A DNA stretch of 64,000 nucleotides from Hormiphora californensis (Eukaryota; Animalia; Ctenophora): positions 1,550,001-1,614,000 of the forward strand of contig CM035354.1 in the NCBI GenBank assembly GCA_020137815.1. Direction: 5' to 3'. Both the position numbers and the translations under genes were made by a program. Below the pieces are notes generated by a model that saw only the letters and a list, made by a program, of their open reading frames with translations, searched no databases and was not told the origin of the DNA. Each line of letters opens with the position of its first letter. Positions within the stretch are counted from its first letter, which is position 1. Shown here piece by piece: positions 964-51,397 of this stretch.

Positions 964-3900
964 CTGCGCAAAGTCCCGTACAAGCAGAAGAAGTTCTTTC
1001 ATCTCCAGAAATCCAGAATGATCCTGATCGTAGTTCCTCCACATCTTGAGGAAATCTGAAGAATCAGGAATAGTTAGGAACCTAAGACTATCATGTAGAG
1101 GCAAAATAGGATACCTTACATTCTAAGTAACATTCTTTGTTACACATCTTGAGGAAATATGTACAAAGGGAGGGGTTTAAGAAAATCTGTATAGCGGAAT
1201 CAGGAATAGCATTAGTTAGGAACAATTGACTATCATGCAGAGGATAACTAGGATCTACCATGTTCTAAACATTTTTTAATACACAGCGCCAGGGGTAAGA
1301 TCTCTTAGTATCCTAGTATGGGAAGTAATTTTGATCTCTCCTTCTGGTGATCAATACACACACACACACACACACACACACGCCCTCTGTACAACAGTTT
1401 AATGGGGAATCTCACACATACACGGGCAGAACTCGGTTAAGGAGAGATTAATTAGTATCCTAGTATGAATTGAAACAAACTGCTGATTATTTAGTTAGTG
1501 GTTAGGTACCTGCTGAGGGTATCCTGTGCCCTATCCTAATGAGGTAGTTCTGCTCGGTAGGGATGCAGTCTATCAGGACATCTTTAGGTATCTCAGCGGG
1601 TAACCTCTCTCCCATTATATCGTGTATCTTGTGCAGTACCTCCATGGTGAAACTGAATATTTGGACTATTTTTATATGAACTATGAACGTTTGTAGACTG
1701 GCGCGTTATCAAGTTGGCTGTTCCCAGCGCGAGCTGGGGACAGCCAACTGGAGTTTAATCGCCCGGCAGGGCGATTAAACTGGTTTAAATCACGACGCCG
1801 ATCCCGAGGCGCCAGCCGAGGGTGAGGGGGAGGTGATTTAAACCTATAACGCGATAGGCTAACAAACGTTCATAGTTTATGAAACCCGATAGTAATTACA
1901 CACTAACATGAGACACAATACAAGGTAAAACACACAAGGAGTACTGGAAAATATTCAACAGACGTCCCCAAACTATGTGTAGACTAACTGGCACCTAGTT
2001 GCAACTGTTCCTAACATATTTGAGTAAGAGAGAGCAAGATTGGAGCCAATACACACAGTGAGAGATATTGAATAGTAAAAGAGAGAATGAGAGAGAGAAG
2101 AGATAGGAATGCGACTCTTTTGACTTTTTATGAGAGAGATAACATTGAAAAGTGTTGCAGATGTGTTTCCCTCTCTGTTATTGACAGAACTGTGTGTTTA
2201 CACACATTTTAATTACTCTGAATTTTACACGCATTTTACTGGGAAGAACTATTTTAGGTATACTTACAAAGGCAAATAAATCAATACACACATCAGAACC
2301 GTACACACTAAGGACCCCACACAGCGTCTGCTGCAGCTAAGGGGCCCTGAAATCTAGATAGAAGGCTAGTAAAATACTGCAAAAGCCTCGTCACGGTAAT
2401 TGAAGTACTAAAGAGAGGGGGTAGAAAATACCTGGTGGACTGGGCGGCTATCCCGAGGGTGGAGCAGGCCTCATATCTCGGACTGTGAACATGAACAGAG
2501 TGGGGAGGGGTAGGGCGTAGGGGAGGGGTAGGGGAGGTGTATTGTGTACTAGAGAACGTTACTGGGTACAATGGACTCAATCAGGTGTTTCTTAGTGAGA
2601 CGGACAAACTCAGTCAGTGAATCACTCTGTCTGATAGAGTAGGGCAGCTTATTCCACAAATCAGTGACTCGGTGAAAAAAGCTAGTCCCTAAGAGCCCTA
2701 TGAGTGTTCGTGTGGTAGGCAGACATGAACACTAGAGTCGTTTTGTCACGACCCTCACGAATGTCACTATTCTGACGGGTGGCTCTGAGTGTGCTGGGGT
2801 TGATCGGTTGAATGTACTGAGGGACAGTGATGCTAATCATACCATACACAATCTTGTAAAACAATCTAAGATCGTAAAACTCGAACAGCTGCTTAAACGG
2901 GAGAAGGTTCAAACTCAGCAGATGATCCACATACTCGTCATTTGTATACGAGGCAAGTGGTTCATTTCTGATCCATTTCACAACCCGTTTTTGCAGCAGT
3001 TCAAGTGACCTCAGACTACCAGCATTCACACACGACCAGACCTGGTTACAGTGCTCAACTAACGACCTCACCATGGACAGATACAGTGTTCTCTTACAAG
3101 AACTCCTACTAAGGAAATAACAAGTCCTGCGGAGCAGGTTGAACTTAAACGACATGGATGTGATAATAGAGTCACAGTGGGAGTTGAAATCTAAAGTGCT
3201 GTTGATGACAATACCCAGGTCACGTTGGTTAGTGACATACTCCAGAGCCACCCCTCCAAGAGAGTAGAAGTACTTGTGGAAGGGGAGGCTACTGAATGGG
3301 TTAGATGACTGTGTGGTAGGGCTGATGACACTCAGAACCTGGCACTTAGCTGGGTGAAACCGCATCATGCTCCGAATTGACCAATCATACAAGGCATCAA
3401 TTGACTTCTGAAGTTCAAAATGATCACTCATACTGTCTATTCTGCGCCAGATCTTGGTGTCATCAGCGTACAGGGAGATGTTAGTCCCAGGTGACGTTAA
3501 GTTAAATATATCATTAATAAACAGGACGAACAATACAGGACCTAAGATGGATCCCTGGGGTACACCAGAGGCCACCGGAAGGATATCAGAGCTCCCACCA
3601 TCAATAACAACTTTCTGACATCTATCCTTCAGGTAGCTCCTAATGAGTCCCAGCAACTGACCACCCACACCAAAACCCAGCTTCAGCTTACTCAGTATCA
3701 GATCATGATTACAAGAATCGAAGGCACGGGAGAAGTCAAAGTATACAACATCTACCCTTGCCCTCGCGTCTAATGCTTCTGCCAGATTGTGGGTGAATGG
3801 AATAAGTTGTGTGGTACAGGATCTACCTCCTAGAAAACCATGCTGACGGGGGTCTAGGTGAGGGGAACATATATCTAGAATCCTAGGCTTGACAAGCCTC

Positions 3901-6900
3901 TCTAGGACCTTAGAAACAAGAGAAAGTAGAGATATGGGTCTATAGTTAGCCACGTCTCTCCGATCTCCTTTTTTAAAGACAGGTACTATTGAGGCAAGCT
4001 TCCAAGCGTCGGGAAATGTACCCTCCCTCGCACAAATGTTATACAGTAACCAGAGGGGGTAAGTGAGAGACCCAGCACAGTTTTTGAGGACTCTGCCAGG
4101 TATCCCATCATCCCCACAGGCCTTAGAACTATCAATAGATGCAAGGGCAGTATACACTTCGTTATAGGTAAAGAACACTGAGCTCTCAGACACATCTACC
4201 TCAATATCGTAGCTACTAGGAGCAGTGAAATGTGAGACAAGATGGTTGTTGAACAGGTTCGCCTTACCAGAGGGATCAGACCTATACACACCGTCACTAA
4301 ACACACTCTCGGGGATCCGCAGGGTCTTACTGGACAACTTAATATGAGACCAGAACCTCTTGGTGATACCACACCCAGAATCAACATCAAAATAGTCGTT
4401 CATTCTAGATGAGATAACCCTCTTTAGGTTTTTTCTAGCCACATAATAAGCTGTCTTATTCTCAGGAGAGGGGTTGCCACTGAGACGAGATCTCAGGGTC
4501 TCCTTCCTGTTTCTAGCTCTCACCACATCACGATCATCATGCCACGACGGGGTGAAAGGGTTTCTCACACGCTTCTTGGGGATGTACTTCTCACACAGAC
4601 TAACAATCACTCTCCTCACATTCTCCCAGGAATCGTTGATATTAACACTGATAAGCCGATCCCAGTTCACCATGCCAAGGGCGACATTCAGTGGAATGGG
4701 GTCGAACTTTCTAAAATCATAACGAAATCTGGCAGGACGGCTACTACGGTTGAAACTTAGATTTATATTAAATCTCAGCCCGTAGTGATCAGAACAACAC
4801 ACCTCATTCACATCACAAACTGACAACTGACCAACGAGATCCGGGCAGTTGGTGAACAACAAATCTAATGTGTTACCAGAGACATGTGTAGGGGACATAA
4901 CCAGCTGGGAATGACCTAGTTCACCACAGAGAAAGTCAACGAACTCACCTTCAAGAGCATTCTTAGTGGTGCCATCGGGCCAGGAGATCCCTGGTAGGTT
5001 GAAGTCACCGACTAAGAAATGCCGCTTGAAACTCCTGGTTTTGGCCAGATTCAACAAATAACTTTTAACATTGGACAGGTTAACAGATGTTAACGAACTA
5101 ACACGGTAAAAGGTGGTTATACAGAAACTGATGTTGGTACTACAGTTGAAAACAACACTGAGAATCTCTGCCTGGGTACTAAAGCGGTCAAACTTATAAC
5201 TAGAAAGAGAAAGGTCTTCCCTATGCGCTATGAGCACCCCACCACCGTTGGCCCTAAACTTCTTGGGTTGATCGGGGTCAAAGGGATGGGTAGCAGCACA
5301 GCGATCCAGTCTGAACACTTTGTAACCATTAGAGAATATCTCACTAGGCTTGATATTGCTTTTCAACCATGTCTCGTTAATGACTATAATATCGGGCTTG
5401 TGAGTGTAGATGAAGTCCTGGAATTCTAGGACCTTGCTCACAGCCAGGTCAGGAGAAGTCTGACTAAGGTTGGCAGTGTGAACAAAGCCCCGAACATTAT
5501 TATAGAGCACACTCAGAGAACGAGGTCCTGGGTTGGCAATACTGGGGTTACAGACAAACAGCATGAGAAAGTTCATCACACACAAGAAGAGAGAAATCAC
5601 CATATGGGACGTACTATGATCTCTCTGTCTGGTGGTGAAGATGAGGATACACACTAGATTAACAAACGGTCTAATAGCACACAGGGGGTGGGTAGGGGGG
5701 AAGAGGGGCAGAACAGCTGGGGTTACTGTAGGGGGTGGGTTAGTGATAGACAGGTGAGCAAAGAAACAGAGTGAAACGATAAACGTGTACATGAACAGTC
5801 CGAGAATGAGGCCACATACCAGTTCGAGGAAAGCCGCAAAGTCCGCAGGTCCTTCTAGATTCCCCTGGTTTACACATCTAGAGACATAAACACACTTTCC
5901 AATCCTCTCTCTATATAACTCTAAACATATTGGTATTAGTGGCGAGAAGGGGGCTACCCGTGCACAGGTAAAAACAGTATAGTGGGGGCAAGAAGGGGGC
6001 GGACCGGGGTAAAACAGCGAGGTAGGTTGAGCAGAGGGGTTAGGGAACGACCAGCAAGTAGAGTTCAGGGAGTGGGGATCAAATAAACAAACCCGAGTAA
6101 ATATCCAATTAAATATTCAATCACTGTGAGAGTAAAAACTGAGAATCTAGACTTGTTTCCAAAAAAGAAACAAAACACAGTTCAGCTAAAAATAGACACT
6201 ATAGCTCCACCCTCCCCAACATTCTCTACTCCTGGGTTAGGAAGAACAGTCTCCCAAATAAGGTATAAAGAGTTCGATCACGTGACAAGCGGTGCAACAC
6301 AGTGCTCTCTCTCCCTCGCTCCTTACTACCCTTGCCTGCAGATGTACAATACATAGAATACACGACACGTGATCAATCAGGCAGGGGCTAAAAAAGACAG
6401 TCAATACTAAGATCTCTCATTCAGTTGATTCACATTTGTGATCCGTCTCTTGAAAGTATCGTCAGACATCTTAACAGAGAACATCTTAACCGGCCCGTCG
6501 AAATACACCTTGCTCACTCCCTCACACTCCTCCAGTTGCCTCTTCCTCTCCAGAACAGCAGGTGGGGTATAATGGTAAGCACCAATATTCTTCTTTCTCA
6601 GGGGACCCTGTCGCCTGTAATCAGAAACAATGTCCTTATCCCGGATGTGACTAAATACAACAGTAACAGAGCGGGGTTTGGCTGGATCCTTCAATTTGTT
6701 CCGGTGTACAGTTGATATCCGGCTGGATGTGAAGTCGGGAATGATCTCCCTAACATGCTTGGCCACCACCTCAGTGATGTCCTCGCTGGGGTCCTCTTTT
6801 ATACCGGTCAGGATGGTGGTAGATCTCCCGGAGTATGATTCAGACTTCAGCAGGCGGTCCTCAAGGGAGGGGTCGCTGGTCTGGCCAGTGGAGACAAGAG

Positions 6901-24628: not shown

Positions 24629-25527
24629 CATAATCGATATCATGTGATTTTGTACAAAAGTAAATCTTGTTTTGTGTGGGGGGGTTGGATTTTACAGAGA
24701 GAGTTTAAGTTTAATAAAAGTTTAATTGAAACTGTATAAAGCATTCAAAGTTATAGTGTGCTTTGTTATTTTAGCCGTTTTAAGGGGTTATATTTTTGTG
24801 TGTGATCAGATATATCTGTTGGTTACTGTCAAGTGGTGTGTATGTGTTGATTTTTTATAGCTTTCAGACTTTTCTTACCTTCAATAAAAACAGACTTGTA
24901 GTTCTATAATAGGAGATTATCTTGCGGGGTGTGGGTAGGGAGGGTCGAACAAAATATTCTCTGCATGCAGGAGCTACGAGACCAAATGAGAAAACTGCAG
25001 CCCAGTCGGAGCAAGGAGGAGGGAGGGTCGAACAAGGCAAATGATAAAACTGCATCCCAGTGGGAGCATTGAGCAAGGATCTGTTATGTTCTAACCCTTC
25101 TAAACCATCCTTTACATGGGTAGAGAGAGAGGGTTGTTGAGTAAGGGGTGGAGGACAACAGGGGGAGAGAGAACAAGGATCTGCATAGTAATCTCTGCTG
25201 CTGCAGTGCAGTGGGCAAGTTTTTTTACGTCATGTCTTGAAATGACGGCCGGTACTATACATTATAACATCCGGAGGGAGAAAACTAAACTTCCTCATTG
25301 ATATGCAGCTCTAATAAACAATCAACCGATCCTTATTATTTCTATGCACCGAACAGAACATTTCTCTCTATCGAGTGGTAGGCACATGTTGTATTGTTCA
25401 TACTATTATTAACAGCACAAGGCATGCATGTTGTAATTGTACGAGCTCCTCATGTCACCCTACACTCTTTTATCACACAAACCCGGGGCAGCCCTCACAT
25501 GATACACACCGTACTACTACTAGTATT

Positions 25528-27834
25528 ATGATACACCTTTGCTTTGTCCTCTTCCTTCTAACTGCCACCACCCATGGTCTGGATCCCCTGCGGGTCCGAT
25601 CTGATGGCCATTTTGTGGACCCCGCTGGCAGGGTGGTCCTTCTACACGGCTTCAATGTGGTAGTAAAACAGTTTCCCTGGTACAGTGAGGACTTGTTCAA
25701 CACAACTCTACTCGCAAGATACAAGGAATGGGGCTTCAATGTGGTCAGGTTGGGCACCATGTGGAGTGGAGTGGAGCCTGATCAGCAGGGCGTCTACAAT
25801 GAGACATATCTGGGCATTATAAAGGAGCAGGTGGAGCTACTGGAACAACACGGTCTGTACGTCTTCCTGGACATGCATCAGGATGTTCTAGAGAGTCGGC
25901 TGGGGACCTATAATGGTGTACCAGGGTGGGTTGCTGATAAACTACCCCGGTCATCCAAACACCCATATCCCTGGCCATTTGGTGACACATCCCACTTTAA
26001 AGGGGGAGGATGGGCTCTCCAGTACCTCACTAAAGATGCTGGTTTAGCATTCCAGGGTCTCTATAACAATGCTAACGGAACCCAGGACAACCTAGCTGCA
26101 TTCTGGAGGAAGGTAGCTGAGACCTTTGTGGGTATGGACAGTGTGATGGGGTACGAGCTGATAAACGAGCCTTGGGCGGGTGATGTGTTTTCCAGACCGT
26201 CCCTCTTTGAGCCGGGTGTAGCCGGGAGACACAACCTCTTCCCCATGTATGAGAAGATAGCTGCAGCGATAAGAGAGGTAGATACATTATTATTAATTAA
26301 CATGTCACCTCCTCCCCCCACGTGGTGAGCTGTATTAGCATGTCGCCTCCTCCTCCCCAAGTGGTGAGTTGTATTAACATGTCGCCTCCTCCCCCCCTAC
26401 CCCAGGTAGATAACGAGACCATTATCATGACAGAACCGGTTACCTGGGGTGTCGTACTAAACGGTAAGCATCCCTTCGTGTTGATCACCTCTCTAGAGGC
26501 TTCGTCAATTACCGCAGGAGTTATAAGTGTGACTGCATCACCAACCCTTCGTGGAATCATTTTAGCATCTTGAAACACATCAGCAAATCAAATTTGAATA
26601 TTATACACCCAACTTCCGACTACCGACCCTACTAGGTAAAAGTGCGGGTACGGGATTTGAAGGAGTCCCTGGTGGGCCGGATTATAGAGACAGGAGTGTT
26701 CTCTCCTACCACCTGTATTGCTGGGGTAGACCAGGTGACCACGACCCTCTGAAACCTCTACAGAGGGTGGTTTGTGAGGACTTTCTGGCACGGGATGTCT
26801 TCAAGGTAAAGGGGTGGGGTGGGGGAGGTTGGGGTGGGAGAGGGGCGGGGTGGGGAGGGAGAGGGGTGGGGGAGGGGCGGGTTTGTGAGGACTTTCTGGC
26901 ACGGGATGTCTTCAAGGTAAGGAGAGGGGTGGAGGAGGGTCGGGTTGGGTGAGGGGCGTGTTGGCCATTGGGGTGGGCGGGGTGGGCCATGGGGTATAAT
27001 GTTCCAGGTATCTGTCTGGGAGTGGGGTGGAGGGATGGGAGTGTCTTCCAAGTATGCATAATATCCAGGGTGGAGGCGGTCTTTCGACCAACTGATTCGT
27101 ATCATAGTCGCTGTAATTCTATTGATTTTGTCACAAATCACGGTGTGAAGTGTTGCCTTGATCCTTGCTTTACCCTCTCTAACAAACATTGTGAAGGCTA
27201 GGGCTAGAAGATATGGTTGTCACTGTTTATAACTTTATCCCCACTGCAGGTAGCCCAAGAGGAGGCCCGTAGGACGGGAGGGGGACGGTTCCTCACCGAG
27301 TTTGGGGAGTGTGACCCGGACGGGAGGAAGAACTCATCAGACACGGTCATGTGTGAAACAGCACTGAACCTGGCAGACCAACATCTCGCATCATGGACCT
27401 ACTGGGATTCTGACTTCAGCAAGGATCCTGCAGCGGCATCTCCATCACCATGGCAACTAGAAGAAGATGCATCATCATCACCATGGCAACTAGAAGGAGC
27501 TGCATCTTCATCACCATGGCAACTAGAGAGTTCAGGGAAGTGGGAGGGTGTGAGGGTATTTGCGAGGTGTTACCCCCAGTTCACAGCCGGTACACCCACC
27601 TACCTCAGTTGGAGTGTGGACTCAGCATCAATGGTCCTTGAGTTCCAGATAGACCCCACCATCACCCGGCCAACAGTTATCGTCACCCCAATGTTACACT
27701 ACCCGGATGGGCTTCATGTCTCGGTGTCAGCGAACTTGAAATACACAGTTGATCGAGGAGAGGTATATGTTTACTCAAAGACAGGGGTGGGGGCAGGTGA
27801 GGTGGGTAAAGTTGCCATAGCCAGGATAGGTTGA
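25528..27834 (+). CDS. Endoglycoceramidase-like glycoside hydrolase family 5 enzyme, secreted or lysosomal
   Basis: Exons 25528-26277, 26406-26463, 26636-26805 and 27250-27834. Signal peptide; GRVVLLHGFN, FNVVRLG, LDMHQD, acid/base YELINEP, YHLYC, nucleophile LTEFG, SWTYW; C-terminal beta domain R.YP...AGTP. Confidence 0.9.
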
Positions 27835-29799: not shown

Positions 29800-32700
29800 A
29801 TGGATTTTGGAACTGTCCTCGAGGCTCTCATCGATCAGGTCAGTAACTTATTTTCAGACAGAAAACCAGTCCCGACAATCCCGTATCATGTGATATTACT
29901 GTCAGGCCAATGCTCTGACAGTACGTTATCAAGTGGTGTATGATTGTTAGGGCTTGTATACAGCTCGAGTCTCAACACTGAGGTGTCCTCAGCTTCTGAA
30001 GAACTGAGGTGTGTATTATATAGTAGCTCGCATGAAAATGGATATATATTCCTGGAGCCATATCATCTCCACATCATCTTAAGGCCAGAGGGGGGGTCGA
30101 CCTTAAGTGCTTTCTTAAGTAATTTCTTGGCCCCATTAATGGATAATGGAGCCAGATATAACATACCATCCAAATACATTCAAATTCCATTTCTGCGATT
30201 CAATATTTCTCATTTCTAATATTGTTGTGGCTATATATGGCCCCTATATTAGTACTTGACATACTAGTCCTCCTCGCCGCCCAGATGGGTGAACGGCACG
30301 TGATGCTCAGCTACCAATGGGACAGTCAGGAACTGGTAAAGAAGGTCTACGCAGCCATCAAGGAAAAGGGCGTCAACGTATGGATGGACATAGAGGGGGG
30401 TGTCACAGGTTGGTTTTGCGATATTCCCTTGTTGGCCCAGGCACTCGGAACTTGGTAGTTGGTTCTAACTCTCCTTTACAATTATAGAGAGAGTCGAGCA
30501 AGTCTCAGGTCTTGATACAATGTATGAAGTAGGTTTCTACATTCCTCCGTCCTCCAGGTAATATCAACGAGGCCATGGCTGAGGGGGTGGATGGGGCTGC
30601 CGTTGTGTGCCCCTTTATGACACAGAAATACCAGGAATCAAAGAACTGCTCCAAGGAACTGAACTACACTAACGACTCCAGTATCGTGGTAAGTGAGGCA
30701 GGTTAGGTAAAACAGGTCGATTTAGGGGAGGTCTGAACTTAATAGGGCTTTTTGTGGTACCAAAATGGTTACTTAGAAATCCCGAAAGGTATTGAAGACT
30801 TCTTCTTTTAGATAGATATACCTTAAGTAGGTTGCTACATTCTAACCTTCCTAGTTCCTCTATGGGGAACGGTGAGAAGCGATCGAGCAAGGCAATGAGT
30901 TATAGGTAGTTGTAAAAACCCAAAGTCCGAAGTCACTTGAACTTTTTACAAATCGAATGTGTCTCTAGGTAGTTCCGTGTATGGCCCAGACCCGAACTGA
31001 CAATGGTAACATGTATAGAGCGAGGGGCTGGCTTGGTATTATCACTGCCGGGAAACTCTGGATAGATTTCAAAGGAGAGGACCAGATGGAATATAGGGTC
31101 ATTCAGTTGCTGACAGAGTGCTGCAATCAACTCAATAAAACCGGTAATTGGTAATTAGTAATTAGTATTTAGTATTGGATAATTAGTAACTAGTATTGGA
31201 TTCATACTTGATAGTGGGTTGTTGTGGGAGTTGAATTGGAGTACATAGTTACAGCCATTATACACAAGTAGTGTTGAATTGATTTCAACCCTTCTTACTG
31301 TTTGTTCATCAGATTAAATAATGTTTTCCCTGCATCTTCAGAGCAGCCGGTGGGTAAAATGAAGATGATGAAGGAAGCAAAGGCAGAGAGAAAGAAACCA
31401 GAGGTCAAGAAAAAGGAGAACTCCTTCCAAGGTAAAATATTACAATAAACTCGCCATGGGTTAATTTCCATAAACTCTTGCATCAAAAGTCTAACGAGAT
31501 GTTTTGTTAACCCAAAGTTTCGCAACTCTTCACAAATCAACTAGTACTAACTGATCCCGTAAGCGATAGTTCCTAGTGGGTTTTTCCCAGGCACCCCTCA
31601 GAAGAAGAAGAAGAAGAAGCAGTACTAACAAGTCCCCTTCTATTTTACAGCTAAATTGAGTGCGGGGATGTTGGTGCTACCTAAGGATCAGAAAATCACT
31701 ATTCCCCTAAAGCAACCCCTAGAGACAGGCGATGAAATTGAGGTATATCAAATTATTTGTAGGACAGTTAACTTTTAGCTGTTATTGATTCATAATTGTT
31801 CTAGAATCTATCTAATCCTCCCACGTGCAATTTAATAGGATATCCGACTAGTTAACATTTGTTAACATTAGTTAACCTTCCACCAGGTAACGGGAGAGTT
31901 CAAATGGGGTAACAAGTTCAATTTCAACCTCATTGGCTCCTCCTATGAAGAAGTCCTGGTTCACTTTGACCTCAGACCACAAGAGAACTGTGTGGTGATG
32001 AACAACAAGCGACACGGATCATGGCAGACAGAGATCCGGGATCACAGTGTCGTCTCTGCATTCATGAACGGTGAAATGGACAAGAACTTTACTCTGATTG
32101 TCCGGTGTGAGAGGGATGAGCTGACGTTTACAATTAACGGAAGGAATGTCACCCCATTCCCCATTCGAGTGCCACTCCGGGAGGGTAAGAACATACTGCT
32201 GCAAAACCCTGAAAACAGCGGTGACTTCCTCTGGAGGACCCTCCGGATCCCAGGGAAGAAGGAAAACAGCTCAAATGCTAAAGATACCCTCCCTGTGGTG
32301 TCAGGGGAGCAGGTCCTGCTGGAGGAGAGCCTGTGTGAGGGTGGTGGGGTGGAGTTATGGGGAGCCCATAGTGGGGGTAACGAATATTGGGCGAGTTTAT
32401 CCCGGGGGAGTGGCGATGGAAAGGAGGATCTTGTACGGGTTGTTGTCAAACCTAGTATGAACACAGTCTACCTTGGTGACACACAGGTTGATGGAGCATT
32501 TGAGGAGTTGACCAGGAAGGAGACCTTTGACCTGAAGATAGTGTTTGAGGGAGAGGGAGAGGCAAGGTTGGTTATCAATGGAAAGGATCAGGGAGAGACA
32601 GTGAAGCTTCCCTTCCCGATTGGTGCTGTATCCTATGTTCTTTGTGAGGGGTCACCATGGCAACGGATTAAGATTCCCAAACCCCGGCAAGCCTTCCAAT

Positions 32701-33152
32701 CCTACGCTCGATACCCAATCAACCAGCTAGGTATCGGTGATGTTATAACCTTTACGGGAAAATACCGCCCTGGTCTCTCAGCCACTAGTGCTAACATCAA
32801 CATAGACGACAACAACAGGATCCTGCACGTTGCAATACGACCTGCTAGTGGTGTGATAGTGTTGAATACCATGTCAGGTGGGGGGTGGATGAGCGAGATC
32901 AGATCTCCCATTCCCCAGGAGATGATGTCCTGTGATCAGTTTGATATGTTCGTTATGGTTAACGAGGACGCACTAGATATTGAGTTCTCTCCGGATGGTG
33001 ATAATGGCAAAGTGTTCCTACAGATGAGCATGCCTCACAGGCTGCCATACAACAAGGTAACTGAGGTACAATTTGTAGATTTTAATGATGATTTCTGGTG
33101 TGAGTTGGAACTCCAGGATGGGTCCCTATTTACCAAGGAACTGACACACTAA
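29800..33152 (+). CDS. TIR (TIR_2-type) plus three galectin-fold domain fusion protein, 638 aa
   Basis: Exons 29800-29838, 30285-30408, 30558-30688, 30969-31143, 31342-31431, 31651-31742 and 31887-33152 total 1917 nt in frame. TIR: HVMLSYQWDSQ...VWMDI...MAEGVD...YQESKNCSKEL...GWLGIITAGKLWIDF. Galectins: VHFDLRP..VVMNN..GSWQTEIR, a degenerate middle domain, and LHVAIRP..IVLNT..GWMSEIR. Confidence 0.85.
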
Positions 33153-33196
33153 ACCATATGAGACTCAAAGACACTGAATCTGTATCCATATGAGAC

Positions 33197-34807
33197 TCAA
33201 AGACACACTGAATCTGGATCACTGAGTAGGTCCTCTCTAACTACCGGGACATGTCGCGAGAGAGAGCAGTGCAGGATAGGGAGAGAATGAGGGAGATCTG
33301 ATCGTATTCGCAAGAATCTGTTACGGAGAGACTCGAAAGGGATCTCTGTTGTTAAGAGACTCAAAGTATTGTTTAGATCTACGGAACTGATAAATGTTAC
33401 TAAATAATCATATGATAATATATTCCGAGAACATAAACTTCCTTGAAATGCTGTGTTGCCAAGTAGTTCTCCCGAAATATTAAGAAGCTTCCTCTCTCTC
33501 AGTACTACCCGCAGAATATGGCGGATACGGGTAGTACCCATCTCTCTCAAGAAGCTTCCTCTCTCACAACCTGAATTTACCGTCTTGTTTGACAGCATCA
33601 CGCCGGAGATTTATTTAATATTTAATCAACGATCACGCACAATATCCTTGAGTTTTACTGATCTCCAGACGTCAAACATCCTTGAGTTTTACTGATCTCC
33701 AGACGTCAAACATCCTTGAGTTTTACTGATCTCCAGACGTCAAACATCCTTGAGTTTTACTGATCTCCAGACGTCAAACATCCTTGAGTTTTACTGATCT
33801 CCAGACGTCAAACATCCTTGAGTTTTACTGATCTCCAGACGTCAAACATCCTTGAGTTTTACTGATCTCCAGACGTCAAACATCCTTGAGTTTTACTGAT
33901 CTCCAGACGTCAAACATCCTTGAGTTTTACTGATCTCCAGACGTCAAACATCCTTGAGTTTTACTGATCTCCAGACGTCAAACATCCTTGAGTTTTACTG
34001 ATCTCCAGACGTCAAACATCCTTGAGTTTTACTGATCTCCAGACGTCAAAGAAAATGATCTTTCCGAAATATAATTTTGGCTATGATAATCAAGACCATA
34101 TTCTCATTTCTTCAAACTGCATTGGCCTGACAGGTTTTAATCGCAGAGTTAAGTCACGCGGCCCTTACTCAACAATTTATCATAACGACCCCAAACCATG
34201 AACAAATATAAGATTTAAGAAACCTAACCCAAAAATTATTTTCCAAACACAGCAGGACATAATATTATAATTACACATGCATGGCTCTAGTTAAAGATTG
34301 GAACCTGACATACGTATACTCCCCCGATAGATAAATAACTAAATAAATGTGGCAGCAAAATCTGCATCTCTCTCACCAAGTGTACGTACAGTGGGACCCT
34401 GATCATTTACCGGCTGTTGCTCGGGGAAAGGCCAAAGGGTTTGCCCGCGCTAAATCGTGGTCCGACTCTACCTTCACATTGTCCCCCCCCCCAAATATCT
34501 ATCCTAGAATAAACGTACCTTGATCAACGTGGCCCTCAGGGCTAGCATCTCCTCCTCCGGTGGGGGAGTCAGTGGCTCTCTCTCGACTGTACCCTGTAAT
34601 TAGATGGAAGATAGAAGATGGATAAGGAAGAGCTATTTTGTTACAATAAACCTCTTTTTGTTACAATGTACCTCTTTTTGTTACAATAAACCTCTTTTTG
34701 TTACAATAAACAGCTCATTTTGGAAACTAACCTTGTTCAGGAATATTGTTGGCAGGGTCATACCCGTCAATATCAAGGGTTAGGCGATCTCTCAGTAGAT
34801 TATACAT
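33197..34807 (-). CDS. Possible small spliced gene, or 3' part of a gene, of unknown function
   Basis: Phase-compatible GT-AG segments 34807-34732, 34593-34519 and 33297-33197 give MYNLLRDRLTLDIDGYDP...DLLSDPDSVCL*. No recognisable motif. Confidence 0.3.
33644..34050. repeat. 34-bp perfect tandem repeat, 12 units
   Basis: ATCCTTGAGTTTTACTGATCTCCAGACGTCAAAC repeated head-to-tail with no spacers. Confidence 0.95.
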
Positions 34808-37616: not shown

Positions 37617-39547
37617 TGACTTACTTGACTTAAGGCGGGTGGAATTCCCGAACGCCTTGAACAAGTTTTCTCCACGCATCACGTTCCTCCATCACTGAAG
37701 CTATCTCCTTCACGTCACTCAGACCCGTATCTTGCCTTAGAACGTCCACATAAGTTTTCTCAGGTCTGCCACGTTTGGCTTGACCGTGAAGTGGTTCCCA
37801 AAGAAGAACTCTGTGGAGGGTTAGCTCAGGATGGCGTTGAGCGTGACCGGCTAGACGTAGTCTGCGTTCTGCTATTTTCGTGCTGAGGATTGGTAGCCCT
37901 CCAATACCATACAACGTTCCATTGGTCATACGGAGTTGCCACTGGTTCTTGTTGAGCGCCATTCTCAGCATCCGGGTGTATGTTCCATTGATGCTCTTCT
38001 CCATTTGTTTGGTGAGGGTCCACGTTTCACATCCGTAGAGGAGAACGGTTTCGACGGTAGCTACAAATAACCTGCACTTTAGTTCGTCTTTCAGATCAGA
38101 GTTCCAGACTTTCTTCAATCCGTGGCAAGCAAGCCATGCTTTACTCTTCCGGTTCTTGATGTCCTTATTGGAATCTCTGATCCACGATCCAAGGTATTTG
38201 AAGTCATCTGCTCTTTTGATCGTGTGTCCATCACAGGTAAGGAGCGGCTCTGGATCAGGGATGTTCTCCACTATGAGCTCCGTTTTGTTCTGGTTGATAG
38301 CCAGACCAACCTCCTTACAAACCGTCTCAACCTCACGTAGTATAACGCCTAACTCCTCAACTGAGTTTGCCAGCAGGGCCACGTCGTCCGCAAAGCCTGT
38401 GTCAGTAATTCTAGATGCCCCAACTCTCCTACTCCTAGCAGGTCTCAGAGTGAAACCGATCTCTGGGTGTCTGCTGAGTGCTATCCGTAGACAGTAATCC
38501 AGTACTATAATAAAGAGATATGGGGCTAAAGTGTCGCCTTGAAGGACACCAGCCACGATCTCAAAGATAGCAGAAAGGCCGTCAGCTGTTAAGACCTGTG
38601 CTTTAGTATTAGTATAAAGCCATTGGATAAGGTCAACGATAGCATCCGGTATACCATATGCTCTCAGGATCTTCATTAGGCTGGATCGGTTGATACTATC
38701 GAAAGCCTTTACGAAATCAATAAAAGCCATAGCGACCGGAAGCTGTTTCCTCCTCGCACCCTCTAGTATCCTCCTTAGTGTCAGGATGTGACTGGTGGTT
38801 GAGCGCCCCTCCCGGAATCCGTTCTGGGAGTCGAGAAGTTTGGTCTCGACATAGGGCCGGATGCGATGTAGTAGCATCCTGTTCAATGTCTTTGCGACGA
38901 TTGAAGTCAGTGCAATACCACGGTAGTTCCCAGGCTTGGACAGATCACCTTTCTTCGGGACAGGGATGATGTTACTGACTGTCCATTGTTCTGGGATACC
39001 CTTACCTTCTAATGCACCGTTACAAAAGCCCAGCACTATCTCATCCAGATCACACCTCTTAAGAACCTCAGGAGGGATGCTATCATCCCCATAGGCCTTC
39101 CCCTCCTTAATCCTCTTCTTGGCCCTCTGATATTCCTCAAGAGTGAAGCTGCCAGTGAAGATGTCCGCCGGGGGAAAGAGCTGTTCGACTTCCGTGTCTG
39201 TTGACCCTGATGGTGCGGACCCTAGTAGGGTTCGGAAGTGATTCAACCATATATCATTCCTCTCGTCCGGCGAGCCCCCCTCCAACTGACTAGCTGTCCT
39301 CAGATTTCTACCAGAGACCTCGTTTACTATTCTCCAAACTTCTCGTGACTTAGCATTCCTAGCAGCATCCTCTACCCTCCTAATCTTACCCTCAATAATC
39401 TCTGACTCAACTTCTCCATAGGCCCCCGATAACTCTTCCTTCGCCCTATTAACTCTGGTCCTCGTTCTCTCGTCTGGCGCTTCGTGATACTCCTTACTGG
39501 CACACTCCAACTCTGTCCTCACTCGCTTAACTCTATAATCCTCTGCC
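37617..39547 (-). mobile_element. 5'-truncated RTE-clade non-LTR retrotransposon with an uninterrupted RT reading frame
   Basis: RT motifs YRGIALTS, QNGFR, DFVKAFD, GVLQGDTLAP, FADD, FKYLGS. RTE-type C-terminus GRPEKTYVD...RDAWR. 3' tail TAAGTCAAGTAAGTCA. The 12-bp TSD AAACCAAAATAT lies at 37605-37616 and 39548-39559. Confidence 0.92.
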
Positions 39548-41654
39548 AAACCAAAATATAGCAACCTATTATGAAAAGCAGAAAATGGCATGTAATGAGG
39601 CATGTAATGAGCTATTTTGTTACCGTATCGCATGAGGTTTGTCATAATGGGTCATATCACGTCATATCATGTTCAGAGAGAGGGAGAGAGAGAGAGAGAA
39701 AGAGAGAAAGAGAGAGGGAGAGAGAGAGAGAGAGAGGAGATAGCGATAGAGATAGCGGTCGACAGAGAGAGAGATAGAAGCTAGAGACCAGAGAAGAGAG
39801 AGAAGAGCGATAGAGAGAGAGAGAGATGAGACGAGAGCCTATCGATATCTCTATCTGCTTCTCGTCTTAGAGGAGTCTACTCGCCTCTCTGCGTGGCGGT
39901 TGTCCCTCGTGCTGTGGTTTGTTGGTGGTGGTTGGGGTGGGTGTGGGGGGAGAGACGATCTCTATAGTTTACATAGTGGAACGCATTAAAACTAAACAGT
40001 AGGCTAGGGATAAAGATCAATTGATGATGATCCTATTATAAACCACCTCCCCCCCTGATATCACACACACACATGTGATGAGTAACCATTAGACAACATC
40101 TCACACGATCTAAAACAATGGTGTTTAACAGAGGATAATAATAAAACGTGATCCACTTCACATTGCCTAAGCGTGTTGTGATGTAAAGGAGGGTTAGAAC
40201 ATAACAAACCAGGTATTAGAGACCCTGCTGCTTCAAAATAATCTTTGTATAAGAGCTGGTATAGAACATAACAATAAATGTGAGCAGCATCTTCACTTTG
40301 TGTACTATGAAGCCTAACATCTGTCTCTCACGGTGTCTCTTAAGATGCGGAAGTGCAAGACAGAACAAAGGTACAGACAGCGCTATGTTCATCTAGCTGC
40401 ACAGTGTGATAAAATATAAGGATAATAATAAGGTGCTAAAAGAACTACCCGGAGCCGGGTTAAAAAGCCCGTTACCTAGAGGCGCACCCAACGGGTGCGT
40501 TATAGTATTACATAATTTTTAAGACATTCATTTAGTATACTGAGACTCCCTTGTGGGATATGAGAGATACCCCTGTTACCCCAGTATCCCTTTCCCTAGT
40601 TTTAGTGGTGAGTTGTCACGTTTTCCCAGCCATGTGCGAGAGCTCTGGTGAAGTGAGGGTGTGAACAATGAGCTTACTAAGACTGTCAGATAGCTTAGAG
40701 TGAGAATAGGTAGTTGAGTAGAGAGAGCCATAGTGAAAGTCAGTCAGACGGGTCTGTCCGATAGTATCGCCTCTTTTACTTGGACGGTGTCGACAGTTCG
40801 AGTCGGAGAAGTGGTACAGAACTTTGGTGTTGTTCCGAATTGTTTCTGGTACGGATATCACGTGACTTGTTGTTAGTCGGGATATTTAAAGCCAAGTGAA
40901 AGAGTGAGACAGTGTGCATTTTATTGCCCGAGAGCACCTACCATCCTTGCTTGAGGGAGAACTTGCCCGTGTTCTGACCGTATCCGATTGTCGATGTGAG
41001 CTGTTTACTTTGGCGTGCATGTGCACCAAAGTTTGTGTGACCAGTGAAGATTGAAGATTGTGTGAGTGATTCCTACCCCCCAAGACTACAGTTACGAAAC
41101 CCGGTGAATCCCCTGTGTTTTGAGAATCCTGGGTGGGCAACCCGCAATCTGAACAAACCTATCACCCACCACCCCCAAACCCCCCTCCCAATTCACCCCC
41201 CGAGTGATATTTCTTTCCCCCGTTCACCCTGACGGTTGAAACCCAGACTATAAAAGACAACTGAATTGTAATGAAAGTCTGAGTAGCTCTCTTAGCATTA
41301 GTCGCCGGTAGTAACATAGGGAACACCCGGGTATGTTGGTACGTTATAATTGCGACGTGTAACCAGTCCGCTTAAAAACTTGGATAGTACTGATTTTTTT
41401 TCCCTCTATGGGGGGAGGGGGGAGGCGGGCCCCGGGGGCCAGGTCTCCCTGCTCCACATTTTTTCGTGTTTATCGTCTCCTCCGCATCGGCTCTCTGGCT
41501 GTTCCTGGTAAAAAATTACCTTTGAAACAAACATTGAAAACAACTAATATAAGCAACGATCCCTCAGCCAATCCTGTCAGCAAACCACATAGATACCCCC
41601 CGGGAATTAATTTTACTTAGATATCACATCCGTTACTCGTTAGGGTACACTAAA

Positions 41655-48925: not shown

Positions 48926-50968
48926 CTACTCCTCATCTACTCTCCTATAAACCAGGCACGTCCTCACAGGTAGATAGGTCTGGATATAATACCTCCCGTT
49001 CTCAGTCATTGAGAAGTACTCGGACTCCCCATCGACCCTGCCCTGCCCTCCAAAATACCCGTGATCACTATCCAGAGCGACCTTCCACTTTCCAGGTCTG
49101 TTAACCTCCGTCCGGTATCCAGTATAACTGGTGCTCCAGTGAAAATTGAACACAAAACAGAGACCACCCCTCTCAAAGACGACCACTCGATCGCTCTCAT
49201 GTGTCAGGTACACATACCCATTACCCCGGTCCAACCAGGGATGATCTCTCTCCAACTCCAACACAGCTCCCTCCCACCTCTCCAGGAACTTGTACCGTAG
49301 AGTCTCATCAGCAGGTAGGTTAAACTGCCTCCTACAGTAGTGGTAGCTACTGTTATTGCCTTCACGGGGGAAATCCAACCACTCTGGGTGCCCGAACTCG
49401 TTTCCCATAAAGGTGAGGATTCCTTCCCCTCCCAGGGAGAATGTGAGGAGTCGGATGATCTTGTGGAGGGAGACACCCCGCTCAATCCGGGGAGTTAACT
49501 CTGACAAGACACTCATATTGGTATACATCTCACTGTCCATCAGCCAGAATGCTAGAGTTTTATCCCCCACTAGGGCCTGGTCATGACTCTCCGAGTAGGC
49601 TATGTTCTTCTCCTCCCACCTCCTGTTGTTCAGAGTCCACACAATGTTTCCCAGATCCCATTCTGAGTCTGTGGAACACTCTTTAATCAGCTTTATCCAC
49701 ATGTCCGGGATGGACATGGCTAGCCGGTAATCAAACCCAACCCCTCCCTCTGAAACAGGTCTACAGAGCCCCGGGAACCCTGACACGTCCTCAGCTATTG
49801 TCACCATTTGGGGGTGCATATCGTGGAGGATCTTGTTACACAGTTGGAGGTAGTTAACCGCATCCCTGTTTAACTGCTCGTTAAAGTATTCCCCAAAGTT
49901 CCCGGTGAACCCGTGACCCACACCATGGTGGTGATATAACATGGAGGTAACCCCATCAAACCTGAACCCATCAAACCGGAACTCAGTTGCCCAGTAGTGC
50001 AGGTTGGACAGTAGGAATCGGAGGGTGGCTGGCTTTGAGTAATCGAATATTCTGGAACCCCAGGCAGCGTGGTTCCCTGCCGGACCCTCAATGAAATAGT
50101 GGGAATCGCTTCCATCGAACGAGTTCAGCCCGTCAACAGTGTTACTAGAAGCGTGACTGTGAACCAGATCCAACAGCACCACCAGCCCATGACGGTGAGC
50201 TGTGTCTACAAGATATCTCAGGGAGTCAGGATCACCGAATCTGGAGGAGGGGGCGAAGAAAGATGTCACTTGGTAACCAAAACTCGCGTAGTAAGCGTGT
50301 TCCATCACCGCCATCAACTGGATGCAGTTGTAACCTAGTTTAGCAATTCTCGGGATAACGTTATCTGCAAACTCTATATAAGATGCAACCCTTGGTTCAG
50401 GTGATGCTATACCAACATGACTCTCATAAATGTATAGCCGGGCGGGGGTCTTGGGTCGGGAGAACGACCACTCATATCCCTGTCCCTGTCCCACAAGGAC
50501 CTCGTTAAAGAAGGCCCGGTCACCTTGCTGGACGTGAAGTGCCCAAGGACTGATCCTGTCGAAGGTGTTACCATGGTGATCGGTACAGAAATACCGGAGT
50601 TCCGTTCCCATGGGAATGACACATTGTCCAGAGGAAGAAAGAGGGATCACCAACTCCCACTCCCCGTCCCTATCTGACTTTTCAAACACATACTCCTTCT
50701 TGTTCCAGTTATTAAAATCCCCGGCTAGACAGAGTTTAGAGAGGTTCGGTGCCCATTCCCGGCACTTTACAGAGTTATCTGGCTGGACTCTGACCCCATA
50801 TCGCTCATAGGATGACAGCAGATCGCCAAGGGAGTCTTCCTCCGCAAGCAACTTGGAGAATTGACGGGAGAAGGATCGGTAAATGTCGATTATTGTACCC
50901 TTGTGTGGGTCAAGGTGGGGGTCCCTCGATACGAGATCCTGGATTTTGGGTGGAACGTCTTCTGGCAT
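48926..50968 (-). CDS. GBE1: 1,4-alpha-glucan branching enzyme (GH13_8), intronless
   Basis: Motifs REWAP, GDFNNW, YESHVG, YYASFGYQVTSFFA, LDLVHSHAS, FDGFRFDGVTSM, IAEDVSG, YSESHDQALVGDK, FMGNEFGHPEWLDFPR. ATG at 50968. Confidence 0.96.
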   Translation of the reverse strand: MPEDVPPKIQDLVSRDPHLDPHKGTIIDIYRSFSRQFSKLLAEEDSLGDLLSSYERYGVRVQPDNSVKCREWAPNLSKLCLAGDFNNWNKKEYVFEKSDRDGEWELVIPLSSSGQCVIPMGTELRYFCTDHHGNTFDRISPWALHVQQGDRAFFNEVLVGQGQGYEWSFSRPKTPARLYIYESHVGIASPEPRVASYIEFADNVIPRIAKLGYNCIQLMAVMEHAYYASFGYQVTSFFAPSSRFGDPDSLRYLVDTAHRHGLVVLLDLVHSHASSNTVDGLNSFDGSDSHYFIEGPAGNHAAWGSRIFDYSKPATLRFLLSNLHYWATEFRFDGFRFDGVTSMLYHHHGVGHGFTGNFGEYFNEQLNRDAVNYLQLCNKILHDMHPQMVTIAEDVSGFPGLCRPVSEGGVGFDYRLAMSIPDMWIKLIKECSTDSEWDLGNIVWTLNNRRWEEKNIAYSESHDQALVGDKTLAFWLMDSEMYTNMSVLSELTPRIERGVSLHKIIRLLTFSLGGEGILTFMGNEFGHPEWLDFPREGNNSSYHYCRRQFNLPADETLRYKFLERWEGAVLELERDHPWLDRGNGYVYLTHESDRVVVFERGGLCFVFNFHWSTSYTGYRTEVNRPGKWKVALDSDHGYFGGQGRVDGESEYFSMTENGRYYIQTYLPVRTCLVYRRVDEE

Positions 50969-51397
50969 ACTTCTCAATTATACATACTGCTAAAATGGGA
51001 GGTTTCTGTTAGAGTTTACGTACGAGCTGCGTACTGTGTAGTACAATGTACAATGTACACTGTACATACACAGTGTGTACACTGTACAATTGGGTAATAA
51101 ATACAACTCATTAAATAAATATGATAATTAAATAAATACATATTAATTAGGAATTCAAAAAACGCACTCAGAAAAGAAAATTAACAAACTGTAAAACAAC
51201 TACAAAACACAGCGTACAGGGTTCGGACCGCAATTACACAGTATACCTCAATACCGCCTTGCCATGCTCGACTCGGGAGGGTTAAAACATAACAAATACC
51301 GCCCACCCCTAATACCGCCCACCCCTATAGTCGGGGCAAAGTCAGGAAAATAGTCGGGGCGAAGTCAGGAAAATGGTGAGGACGAAGCCGCAGGTTG

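Follow-up and report, generated by a model that had tools for sequence, protein, structure and literature searches.

A 64,000-nucleotide stretch of the genome of the ctenophore Hormiphora californensis (contig CM035354.1, positions 1,550,001 to 1,614,000; hereafter the window, with position 1 as its first letter) carries on its forward strand, at 29800-33152, a gene that joins an N-terminal TIR domain to three galectin-fold domains in a single protein. Comparison of its sequence with those of relatives confirms that this TIR-galectin gene is real and conserved in ctenophores, and predicts that its TIR carries an intact site for cleaving nicotinamide adenine dinucleotide (NAD+). A sequence-only reading of the window had taken the protein for a candidate cytosolic immune receptor in which the binding of many glycans clusters the TIR and sets off NAD+ cleavage or signalling. 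As a whole, that interpretation is partly supported; activation by glycan clustering and the immune role are the parts that we infer.

Joined by coordinate, the seven exons give one stop-free frame of 638 amino acids (aa), with an in-frame stop immediately 5′ of the ATG. All six introns (144-446 nt each, 1,436 nt in total) are of the GT-AG type and the phases match across them, so that the seven phase-consistent exons first proposed from the letters hold. The spliced product aligns end to end with full-length orthologs, ungapped over junctions 1-4, and P0001, a record from Pleurobrachia bachei, repeats junctions 5 and 6 exactly. On a relative's contig in run X2, an exon-1 homolog is directly joined to exon 2 (25/30 letters, against 19/30 for the next best window match). 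Contig 4 of the same run, which bridges exons 2 and 3, was not counted as support because, to judge by its flanks, it comes from a TIR paralog. Two near-identical contigs of run X1, at 32866-33010 and 33112-33304, cross no junction and are RNA only by guess, and they too were left out of the evidence. Contigs of 2295, 2161 and 1984 nt carry three orthologs without a break and leave 324, 196 and 226 spare bases; given how short this spare length is next to the 1,436 nt of intron in Hormiphora, the contigs are most simply read as assemblies of spliced mRNA. Two short open reading frames, P0208 and P0277, apparently share the start and end boundaries of exon 4. Intron 5 contains, at 31591-31629 on the forward strand, an AG acceptor whose phase fits exon 5, followed by a short lysine run, encoded by a GAA repeat, and then a stop. 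A TIR-only isoform of ~198 aa could result, or the feature could be a chance microsatellite.

A search with exon 7 found five proteins among 3,249 candidates, P. bachei P0001 at 93% identity and the other relatives, Bolinopsis XP_063688557.1 among them, at 37-41%. P0016 was added by a search with the TIR region (4 of 124 candidates), and Mnemiopsis leidyi KAL5270461.1 by cluster look-up. The latter and Bolinopsis microptera XP_063688557.1 (653-656 aa) each carry TIR_2 and three Gal-bind_lectin domains, in the same order and length class as the Hormiphora protein and with a TIR 72-73% identical to its own, and both are annotated just as 'uncharacterized' or 'hypothetical'. TIR_2 and Gal-bind_lectin are the only Pfam families above cut-off in the full-length orthologs, and no leucine-rich repeat (LRR) was found there by Pfam. 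Two of the best 120 of 525 matches to a TIR profile, searched among 7,995 candidates, carry Gal-bind_lectin, and both are orthologs; an exhaustive search by profile gave 4,404 matches, of which the best 150 were listed. Altogether we collected 282 proteins, 260 with a TIR, 26 with a galectin domain and six with both, all six being orthologs. Within the best-ranked matches listed, the TIR-galectin fusion looks specific to ctenophores.

The sister TIRs of this gene also end in lectin-type folds. In a tree of 60 selected TIRs (61 had been chosen, and P0277 was left out as too short), the galectin fusions fall inside a 12-row TIR clade with support 98/97, an 8-row version of which appears in a 123-row quick tree with a Shimodaira-Hasegawa-like approximate likelihood ratio test (SH-aLRT) value of 97. 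Only four rows carry a ctenophore name, and two are fragments. All ten complete members terminate in a lectin-type fold: galectin in five, a fascin-like trefoil plus F5/8C in two, tectonin in two and DUF3011 in one. Bolinopsis XP_063675560.1 and Mnemiopsis KAL5264916.1 combine the TIR with a fascin-like trefoil and F5/8C galactose-binding-type domains, P0040 and P0157 with tectonin, and P0160 with DUF3011, which is the domain of an Aplysia egg lectin (PMC5484111); the lectin-type domains of these sister TIRs all exceed the Pfam cut-offs. The strongest indirect sign that the design serves to sense sugars is this repeated pairing of one TIR clade with lectin folds that are unrelated to each other.

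The sister TIRs bearing trefoil plus F5/8C, tectonin or DUF3011 domains are P0035, P0044, P0040, P0157 and P0160, and the tectonin TIRs nest beside the Mnemiopsis TIR with trefoil and F5/8C, a placement in the sequence tree that suggests a recent domain swap. P0064, P0077 and P0107 (also P0187 and P0220) join a TIR to a ricin-B-type lectin in a separate clade outside the ctenophore one, and the pairing of lectin with TIR may have arisen more than once. A group running from P0024 to P0126 (61 proteins, 260-340 aa) is a conserved TIR protein found in cnidarians, worms and teleost fish. Its C-terminal domain is unannotated and ~130 aa long, and has only a non-significant match, to the mussel lectin SeviL (E 0.78). 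A trefoil lectin assignment for the C-terminal domain of this ~300-aa cnidarian-to-fish family was unsupported (HHalign probability <1).

The claim of three galectin domains stands for the fold and stands in part for the sugar sites. Pfam scores Gal-bind_lectin at 79.5 bits in exon 7, in two stretches only, and recovers three stretches in orthologs; domain 2 matches domain 1 with an HHalign probability of 99.1. Identity to orthologs is 42-56% for domain 1, 26-34% for domain 2 and 36-47% for domain 3. Modelled on a 12-row alignment, the Mnemiopsis ortholog has three confident beta-sandwiches, which bears out the galectin-like fold of the C-terminal domains: domain 1 superposes on galectin-8N/9N (Z 20.0, root-mean-square deviation 2.1-2.3 Å, 142-145 residues), domain 3 superposes on galectin-2 (Z 16.8, 2.4 Å, 130 residues), and tandem galectins cover domains 1-2. 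Hormiphora exon 7 folded alone from its single sequence reached a predicted local distance difference test score (pLDDT) of 35.9, too low for a usable model.

Galectins hold galactose with a list of seven site residues. We scored them in 10 sequences by the motifs of PMC13084444 (H-x-N-x-R, N and W-x-x-E-x-R). Domain 1 has six of the seven residues in 8/10 sequences and all seven in the other two, and its H, R, N, W, E and R are present in 10/10. Domain 3 keeps 6/7 in half of the sequences, that of Hormiphora included, where Ala533 takes the Asn position of HxNxR; sponge galectins vary too in the H-x-N-x-R heptapeptide (PMC13084444). The H, R and W of domain 2 are retained in the eight more distant sequences. 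"Triple galectin" is therefore apt for the fold, with at most two predicted sugar sites in Hormiphora, of which the domain 1 site alone is consistent across species. Three apparently stand-alone galectins close to the domains of the fusion (P0166, P0180 and P0222) have the same H-x-D-x-R variant as domain 1; signal-like N-termini occur in two of them, and the two domains of P0166 are separated by thrombospondin repeats. The lysine-rich linker between TIR and galectins was also found as described, with 11 K/R in residues 157-192; the matching linker of four orthologs has 10-13 K/R despite its diverged sequence, and that of P0001 is identical over 30/30 aligned residues (region 157-195).

All the TIR motifs named by the sequence-only reading (SYQW, VWMDI, CSKEL and GWLG..WIDF) are found in the TIR exons. 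In a scan of 10 pieces, exons 2 and 3 taken singly reach 26.8 and 23.5 bits, which as fragments is under the TIR_2 (PF13676) gathering score of 28 bits; the orthologs pass it with 59-65.5 bits. The TIR is the most conserved region of the protein, with 71-73% identity to orthologs against 26-56% for the galectin domains. Among solved structures, a subfamily TIR profile matches the NADase Cat1 best (E 1.9e-6) and RPP1 weakly. Profiles were needed for this, as phmmer with the single TIR found nothing relevant in the PDB. PADLOC and NCBIfam gave weak TIR-type matches only, and an Atlas search with the whole protein gave a bacterial TIR cluster as its sole lead, which at 0.81 was at chance level and was set aside.

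The pocket of Cat1 takes S7, H8, N9, N10, D33, S68 and E74 out of a single TIR, with K121 and Y122 supplied by the next (PMC12162218). Ser22, Asp48, Ser82 and Glu88 of the Hormiphora protein align identically with S7, D33, S68 and E74, and Trp129 is aligned to Y122 in a less certain part of the alignment. The Glu of CSKEL is thus at the catalytic position, as had been claimed, and it is kept in the best TIR of 124/124 relatives, a set retrieved with Glu-bearing queries. Counting all 145 TIR copies, 132 have the catalytic Glu, and the 13 without it are second copies in multi-TIR proteins. Across 93 aligned proteins, Tyr79, Ser82, Glu88 and Leu120 are invariant. By these alignments, in which the other four Cat1 pocket residues differ, an intact NAD+-cleaving site is predicted. 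The Glu is necessary, not sufficient, for NADase activity.

We propose a cytosolic sensor-enzyme. Its galectin block would attach to beta-galactoside-type glycans exposed on damaged vacuoles or invading microbes, and the crowding that follows would activate the TIR. On the present sequence evidence, we would give this mechanism about an even chance. The protein would remain in the cytosol, where beta-galactoside-type glycans are normally absent; as first noted from the letters, hydropathy gives it neither a signal-like N-terminus nor a membrane segment (best mean over 19 residues 1.25; no dedicated predictor was used). Cytosolic galectins are known to reach the glycans of damaged vacuoles (PMC5758549). 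Here domain 1, aided by domain 3, would bind a glycan-dense surface, domain 2 would act as a spacer or protein-binding unit, and the basic linker may add affinity for an anionic membrane. At high local density the TIRs would stack and form a two-protomer active site, as known from Cat1, and would convert NAD+ to an ADP-ribose-derived signal, most likely cyclic ADP-ribose (cADPR); the alternative would be to deplete NAD+ locally. In a recent screen the majority of the active animal TIRs produced cADPR, and the majority left NAD+ undepleted (Hurieva et al. 2026, bioRxiv 10.64898/2026.04.20.719644), which makes a signalling output at least as likely as NAD+ depletion.

Several observations weigh against this proposal, and the other explanations draw on them. 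On the galectin side, domain 1 has Asp (Asp245 here) in place of the canonical Asn in 8/10 sequences, domain 3 drops to 4-5 of the seven site residues in 5/10, and domain 2 has none of the seven and a 12-residue deletion in Hormiphora and P0001; through this loss, erosion and replacement the valency is possibly as low as one. In Mnemiopsis, moreover, the four TIR2 genes induced by Vibrio were described as TIR2-only (three) or TIR2-FN3 (one) (PMC11797021). The same facts would fit an enzymatic TIR whose galectin block mainly binds proteins or restrains the TIR, through autoinhibition or localisation. There would then be no glycan-cluster trigger, and the role may be a housekeeping one, such as the control of lysosome or membrane damage, and not an immune one. 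The structure of galectin-8 solved with an NDP52 peptide bound gives a protein-binding galectin block a model, and the absence of the TIR-galectin gene from the Vibrio-induced architectures as described is compatible with a non-glycan trigger. Nevertheless, the H, R, N, W, E and R of domain 1 persist in every sequence scored at an overall identity of 42-56%, the three nearby galectins, two of them with signal-like N-termini, share the H-x-D-x-R variant, and sister TIRs bear three other lectin-type folds. We therefore regard a protein-binding or restraining galectin block as unlikely, though it is the alternative that survives best.

On the TIR side, Leu128 stands opposite Cat1 K121, Tyr/Gln/Trp stand opposite H8/N9/N10, and the Trp that Cat1 has four positions ahead of the Glu is Asn84 here. 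In the Mnemiopsis ortholog model the TIR is unreliable (pLDDT <50), so the orientation of Glu88 is not visible in it. When Glu-bearing animal TIRs were expressed in E. coli, 12 of 61 were active, and TLR2, IL-1R9 and IL-1R10 were inactive despite their retained Glu (Hurieva et al., bioRxiv 10.64898/2026.04.20.719644); more generally, the frequency of the Glu does not necessarily track activity (PMC7075850). Galectins that sense glycans could thus be coupled to a non-catalytic TIR, a scaffold that nucleates other TIR proteins much as in signalling from Toll-like receptors (TLRs) to MyD88, with which the 15 TIR2 genes of Mnemiopsis, one with a death domain (PMC11797021), the Asn at the position of the Cat1 Trp and the inactivity of some Glu-bearing TIRs agree. 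However, Ser22, Asp48, Ser82 and Glu88 hardly vary across the subfamily, in keeping with a pocket, and the published tree groups no ctenophore TIR with MyD88 or the TLRs (PMC11797021). The activity screen, for its part, used isolated TIRs without activation and followed three products only, and its authors state that oligomer-dependent activation was missed (bioRxiv 10.64898/2026.04.20.719644). A scaffold TIR accordingly seems to us improbable.

Export is a further alternative: galectins and discoidins are secreted without signal peptides (PMC5758549), chimeras of enzyme and lectin are a known class (PMC12355970) and the linker is strongly basic, so that the protein might be a lectin-targeted NADase acting beyond its own cytosol, on microbes or food cells. 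It has no recognisable translocation domain, however, its TIR is highly conserved (71-73%), unlike what we would usually expect of an offensive protein, and the secreted-looking related galectins have signal-like N-termini that the TIR-galectin protein does not have; we hold export to be very improbable. One more point weighs against the proposed sensor-enzyme: the P. bachei record P0001 begins at Met167, in the linker, without a TIR, and is either a truncated gene model or a genuine short form. Least probable of all is that the TIR and galectin exons mostly give separate products in Hormiphora, the fusion being a modelling artefact or a minor isoform, for although P0001 has no TIR, no Hormiphora read crosses any junction, the TIR and galectin pieces lie on different contigs in run X2 and a form with the TIR alone could terminate through the in-phase acceptor at 31591, the full-length fusion is present in two annotated genomes and on three short contigs, the TIR-linker junction is aligned ungapped, and splice sites and phases are all intact.

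If the cytosolic sensor-enzyme is correct, it differs in wiring from what is known in vertebrates, where galectins detect broken vacuoles but need separate effectors: glycan detection would be connected to a TIR in one chain. Ctenophores are treated as the sister lineage to every other animal and are reported to have no TLRs (PMC11797021). The statement, cited in the same paper, that P. bachei has no TIR domains is questioned by our data, as P0001 starts after the TIR exons found in its 93%-identical relative. The protein would also be a small, soluble test case for the activation of an animal TIR enzyme by a defined ligand, a question out of reach for the screen of isolated TIRs. That lectin modules are swapped within one TIR clade points to a family of receptors. 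We advance only tentatively, and with some doubt, the broader idea that ctenophores possess a set of cytosolic receptors for glycans, in which one enzymatic TIR clade is combined with interchangeable lectin sensors (three galectins, trefoil plus F5/8C, tectonin or DUF3011) and each receptor would turn a different foreign or misplaced sugar directly into an NAD-derived alarm. If true, the innate immunity of animals would have an arm of lectin-gated TIR enzymes that is undescribed in the literature searched.

Table 1. Exons and domains of the Hormiphora californensis TIR-galectin gene, in positions of the window.
Feature	Position	Strand	Content
Exon 1	29800..29838	+	aa 1-13; short N-terminal segment preceding the TIR; ATG and GT donor; homologous to ortholog N-termini
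Exon 2	30285..30408	+	aa 14-54; first part of the TIR; SYQW (Ser22, Tyr23), VWMDI (Asp48); Pfam TIR_2 E 8e-6
Exon 3	30558..30688	+	aa 55-98; TIR core; Ser82 and predicted catalytic Glu88 (CSKEL); Pfam TIR_2 E 8e-5
Exon 4	30969..31143	+	aa 99-156; last part of the TIR; GWLG, WIDF (Trp129); 61-71% identity to orthologs (tblastn)
Exon 5	31342..31431	+	aa 157-186; lysine-rich linker
Exon 6	31651..31742	+	aa 187-217; galectin domain 1 begins (first strands); a motif resembling a branch point lies 26 nt ahead of the acceptor
Exon 7, whole	31887-33152	+	Gal-bind_lectin by Pfam
Exon 7, remainder of galectin domain 1	31887..32255	+	to ~aa 340; site H243 D245 R247 N256 W263 E266 R268
Exon 7, galectin-fold domain 2	32283..32681	+	~aa 350-482; sugar site lost in Hormiphora californensis
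Exon 7, galectin domain 3 and stop	32682..33152	+	~aa 483-638; site H531 A533 R535 N544 W551 E554 R556

Several other features were observed in the window. The upstream neighbour (25318-27834, forward strand) belongs to glycoside hydrolase family 5 and has a GH5 C-terminal domain; we take it to be endoglycoceramidase-like. On the reverse strand, an apparently intronless open frame of 683 aa at 48926-50977 has CBM48 and alpha-amylase domains and is presumably a glycogen-branching-enzyme-like gene. Two frames of the reverse transcriptase of long interspersed nuclear elements (LINE type) lie on the same strand, at 2682-6116 and 37630-39651, the former with an endonuclease domain and a 245-aa frame upstream. 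Right after the stop codon of the TIR-galectin gene there is a 32-base duplication (33154-33220), and further downstream, at 33644-34050, 12 perfect copies of a 34-base unit.

As judged from listings and partly from passages, the literature searched holds no description of a TIR and a galectin in one protein, which agrees with the sequence-only reading, but the fusion of a TIR with a lectin as such has a precedent in Arabidopsis. PP2-A5 (Santamaria 2019, via PMC12355970) likewise has an N-terminal TIR and a C-terminal lectin and is linked to defence. It differs in its plant TIR, its PP2 fold and its single lectin domain, and its catalysis and sugar binding are uncharacterised according to PMC12355970; the lectin part of the Hormiphora protein is Gal-bind_lectin by Pfam and by fold, not PP2. 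Within the available text of PMC11797021, on the Mnemiopsis immune genome, the word 'galectin' occurs 0 times in the text or the legend of Fig. 3a, and the fusion may still be in the figure or tables; the 15 TIR2 genes described there have znF, EF-hand, LTD, FN3 and death domains as partners. The main text of bioRxiv 10.64898/2026.04.20.719644, as far as available, mentions no ctenophore, galectin or lectin. With SARM1 and the cADPR-making animal TIRs of that study, the ctenophore protein shares a non-TLR animal TIR with a Glu in the alpha-C helix and a fusion to other domains. Unlike SARM1, MyD88 or the plant TNL proteins, its orthologs have by Pfam no ARM and SAM, no death domain and no NB-ARC and LRR, and unlike the TLRs they have no LRR and the protein has no transmembrane helix by hydropathy. 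Galectin-8, -9 and -3 and the tandem galectins of sponges and nematodes have the same fold, also have no signal peptide, and have motif residues that are largely kept in domains 1 and 3; the three galectin classes of PMC13084444 have one or two domains and no enzymatic effector, whereas the ctenophore protein has three and a TIR. Cat1 (TIR-CARF, of type III CRISPR; PMC12162218), TIR-STING and TIR-SAVED likewise place a TIR at the N-terminus and a ligand sensor at the C-terminus. The ctenophore gene is thus apparently a variant of this sensor-TIR design with an architecture undescribed in the literature searched: in Cat1-type effectors a cyclic nucleotide ligand builds a filament, whereas in the ctenophore protein the predicted ligand is a glycan surface.

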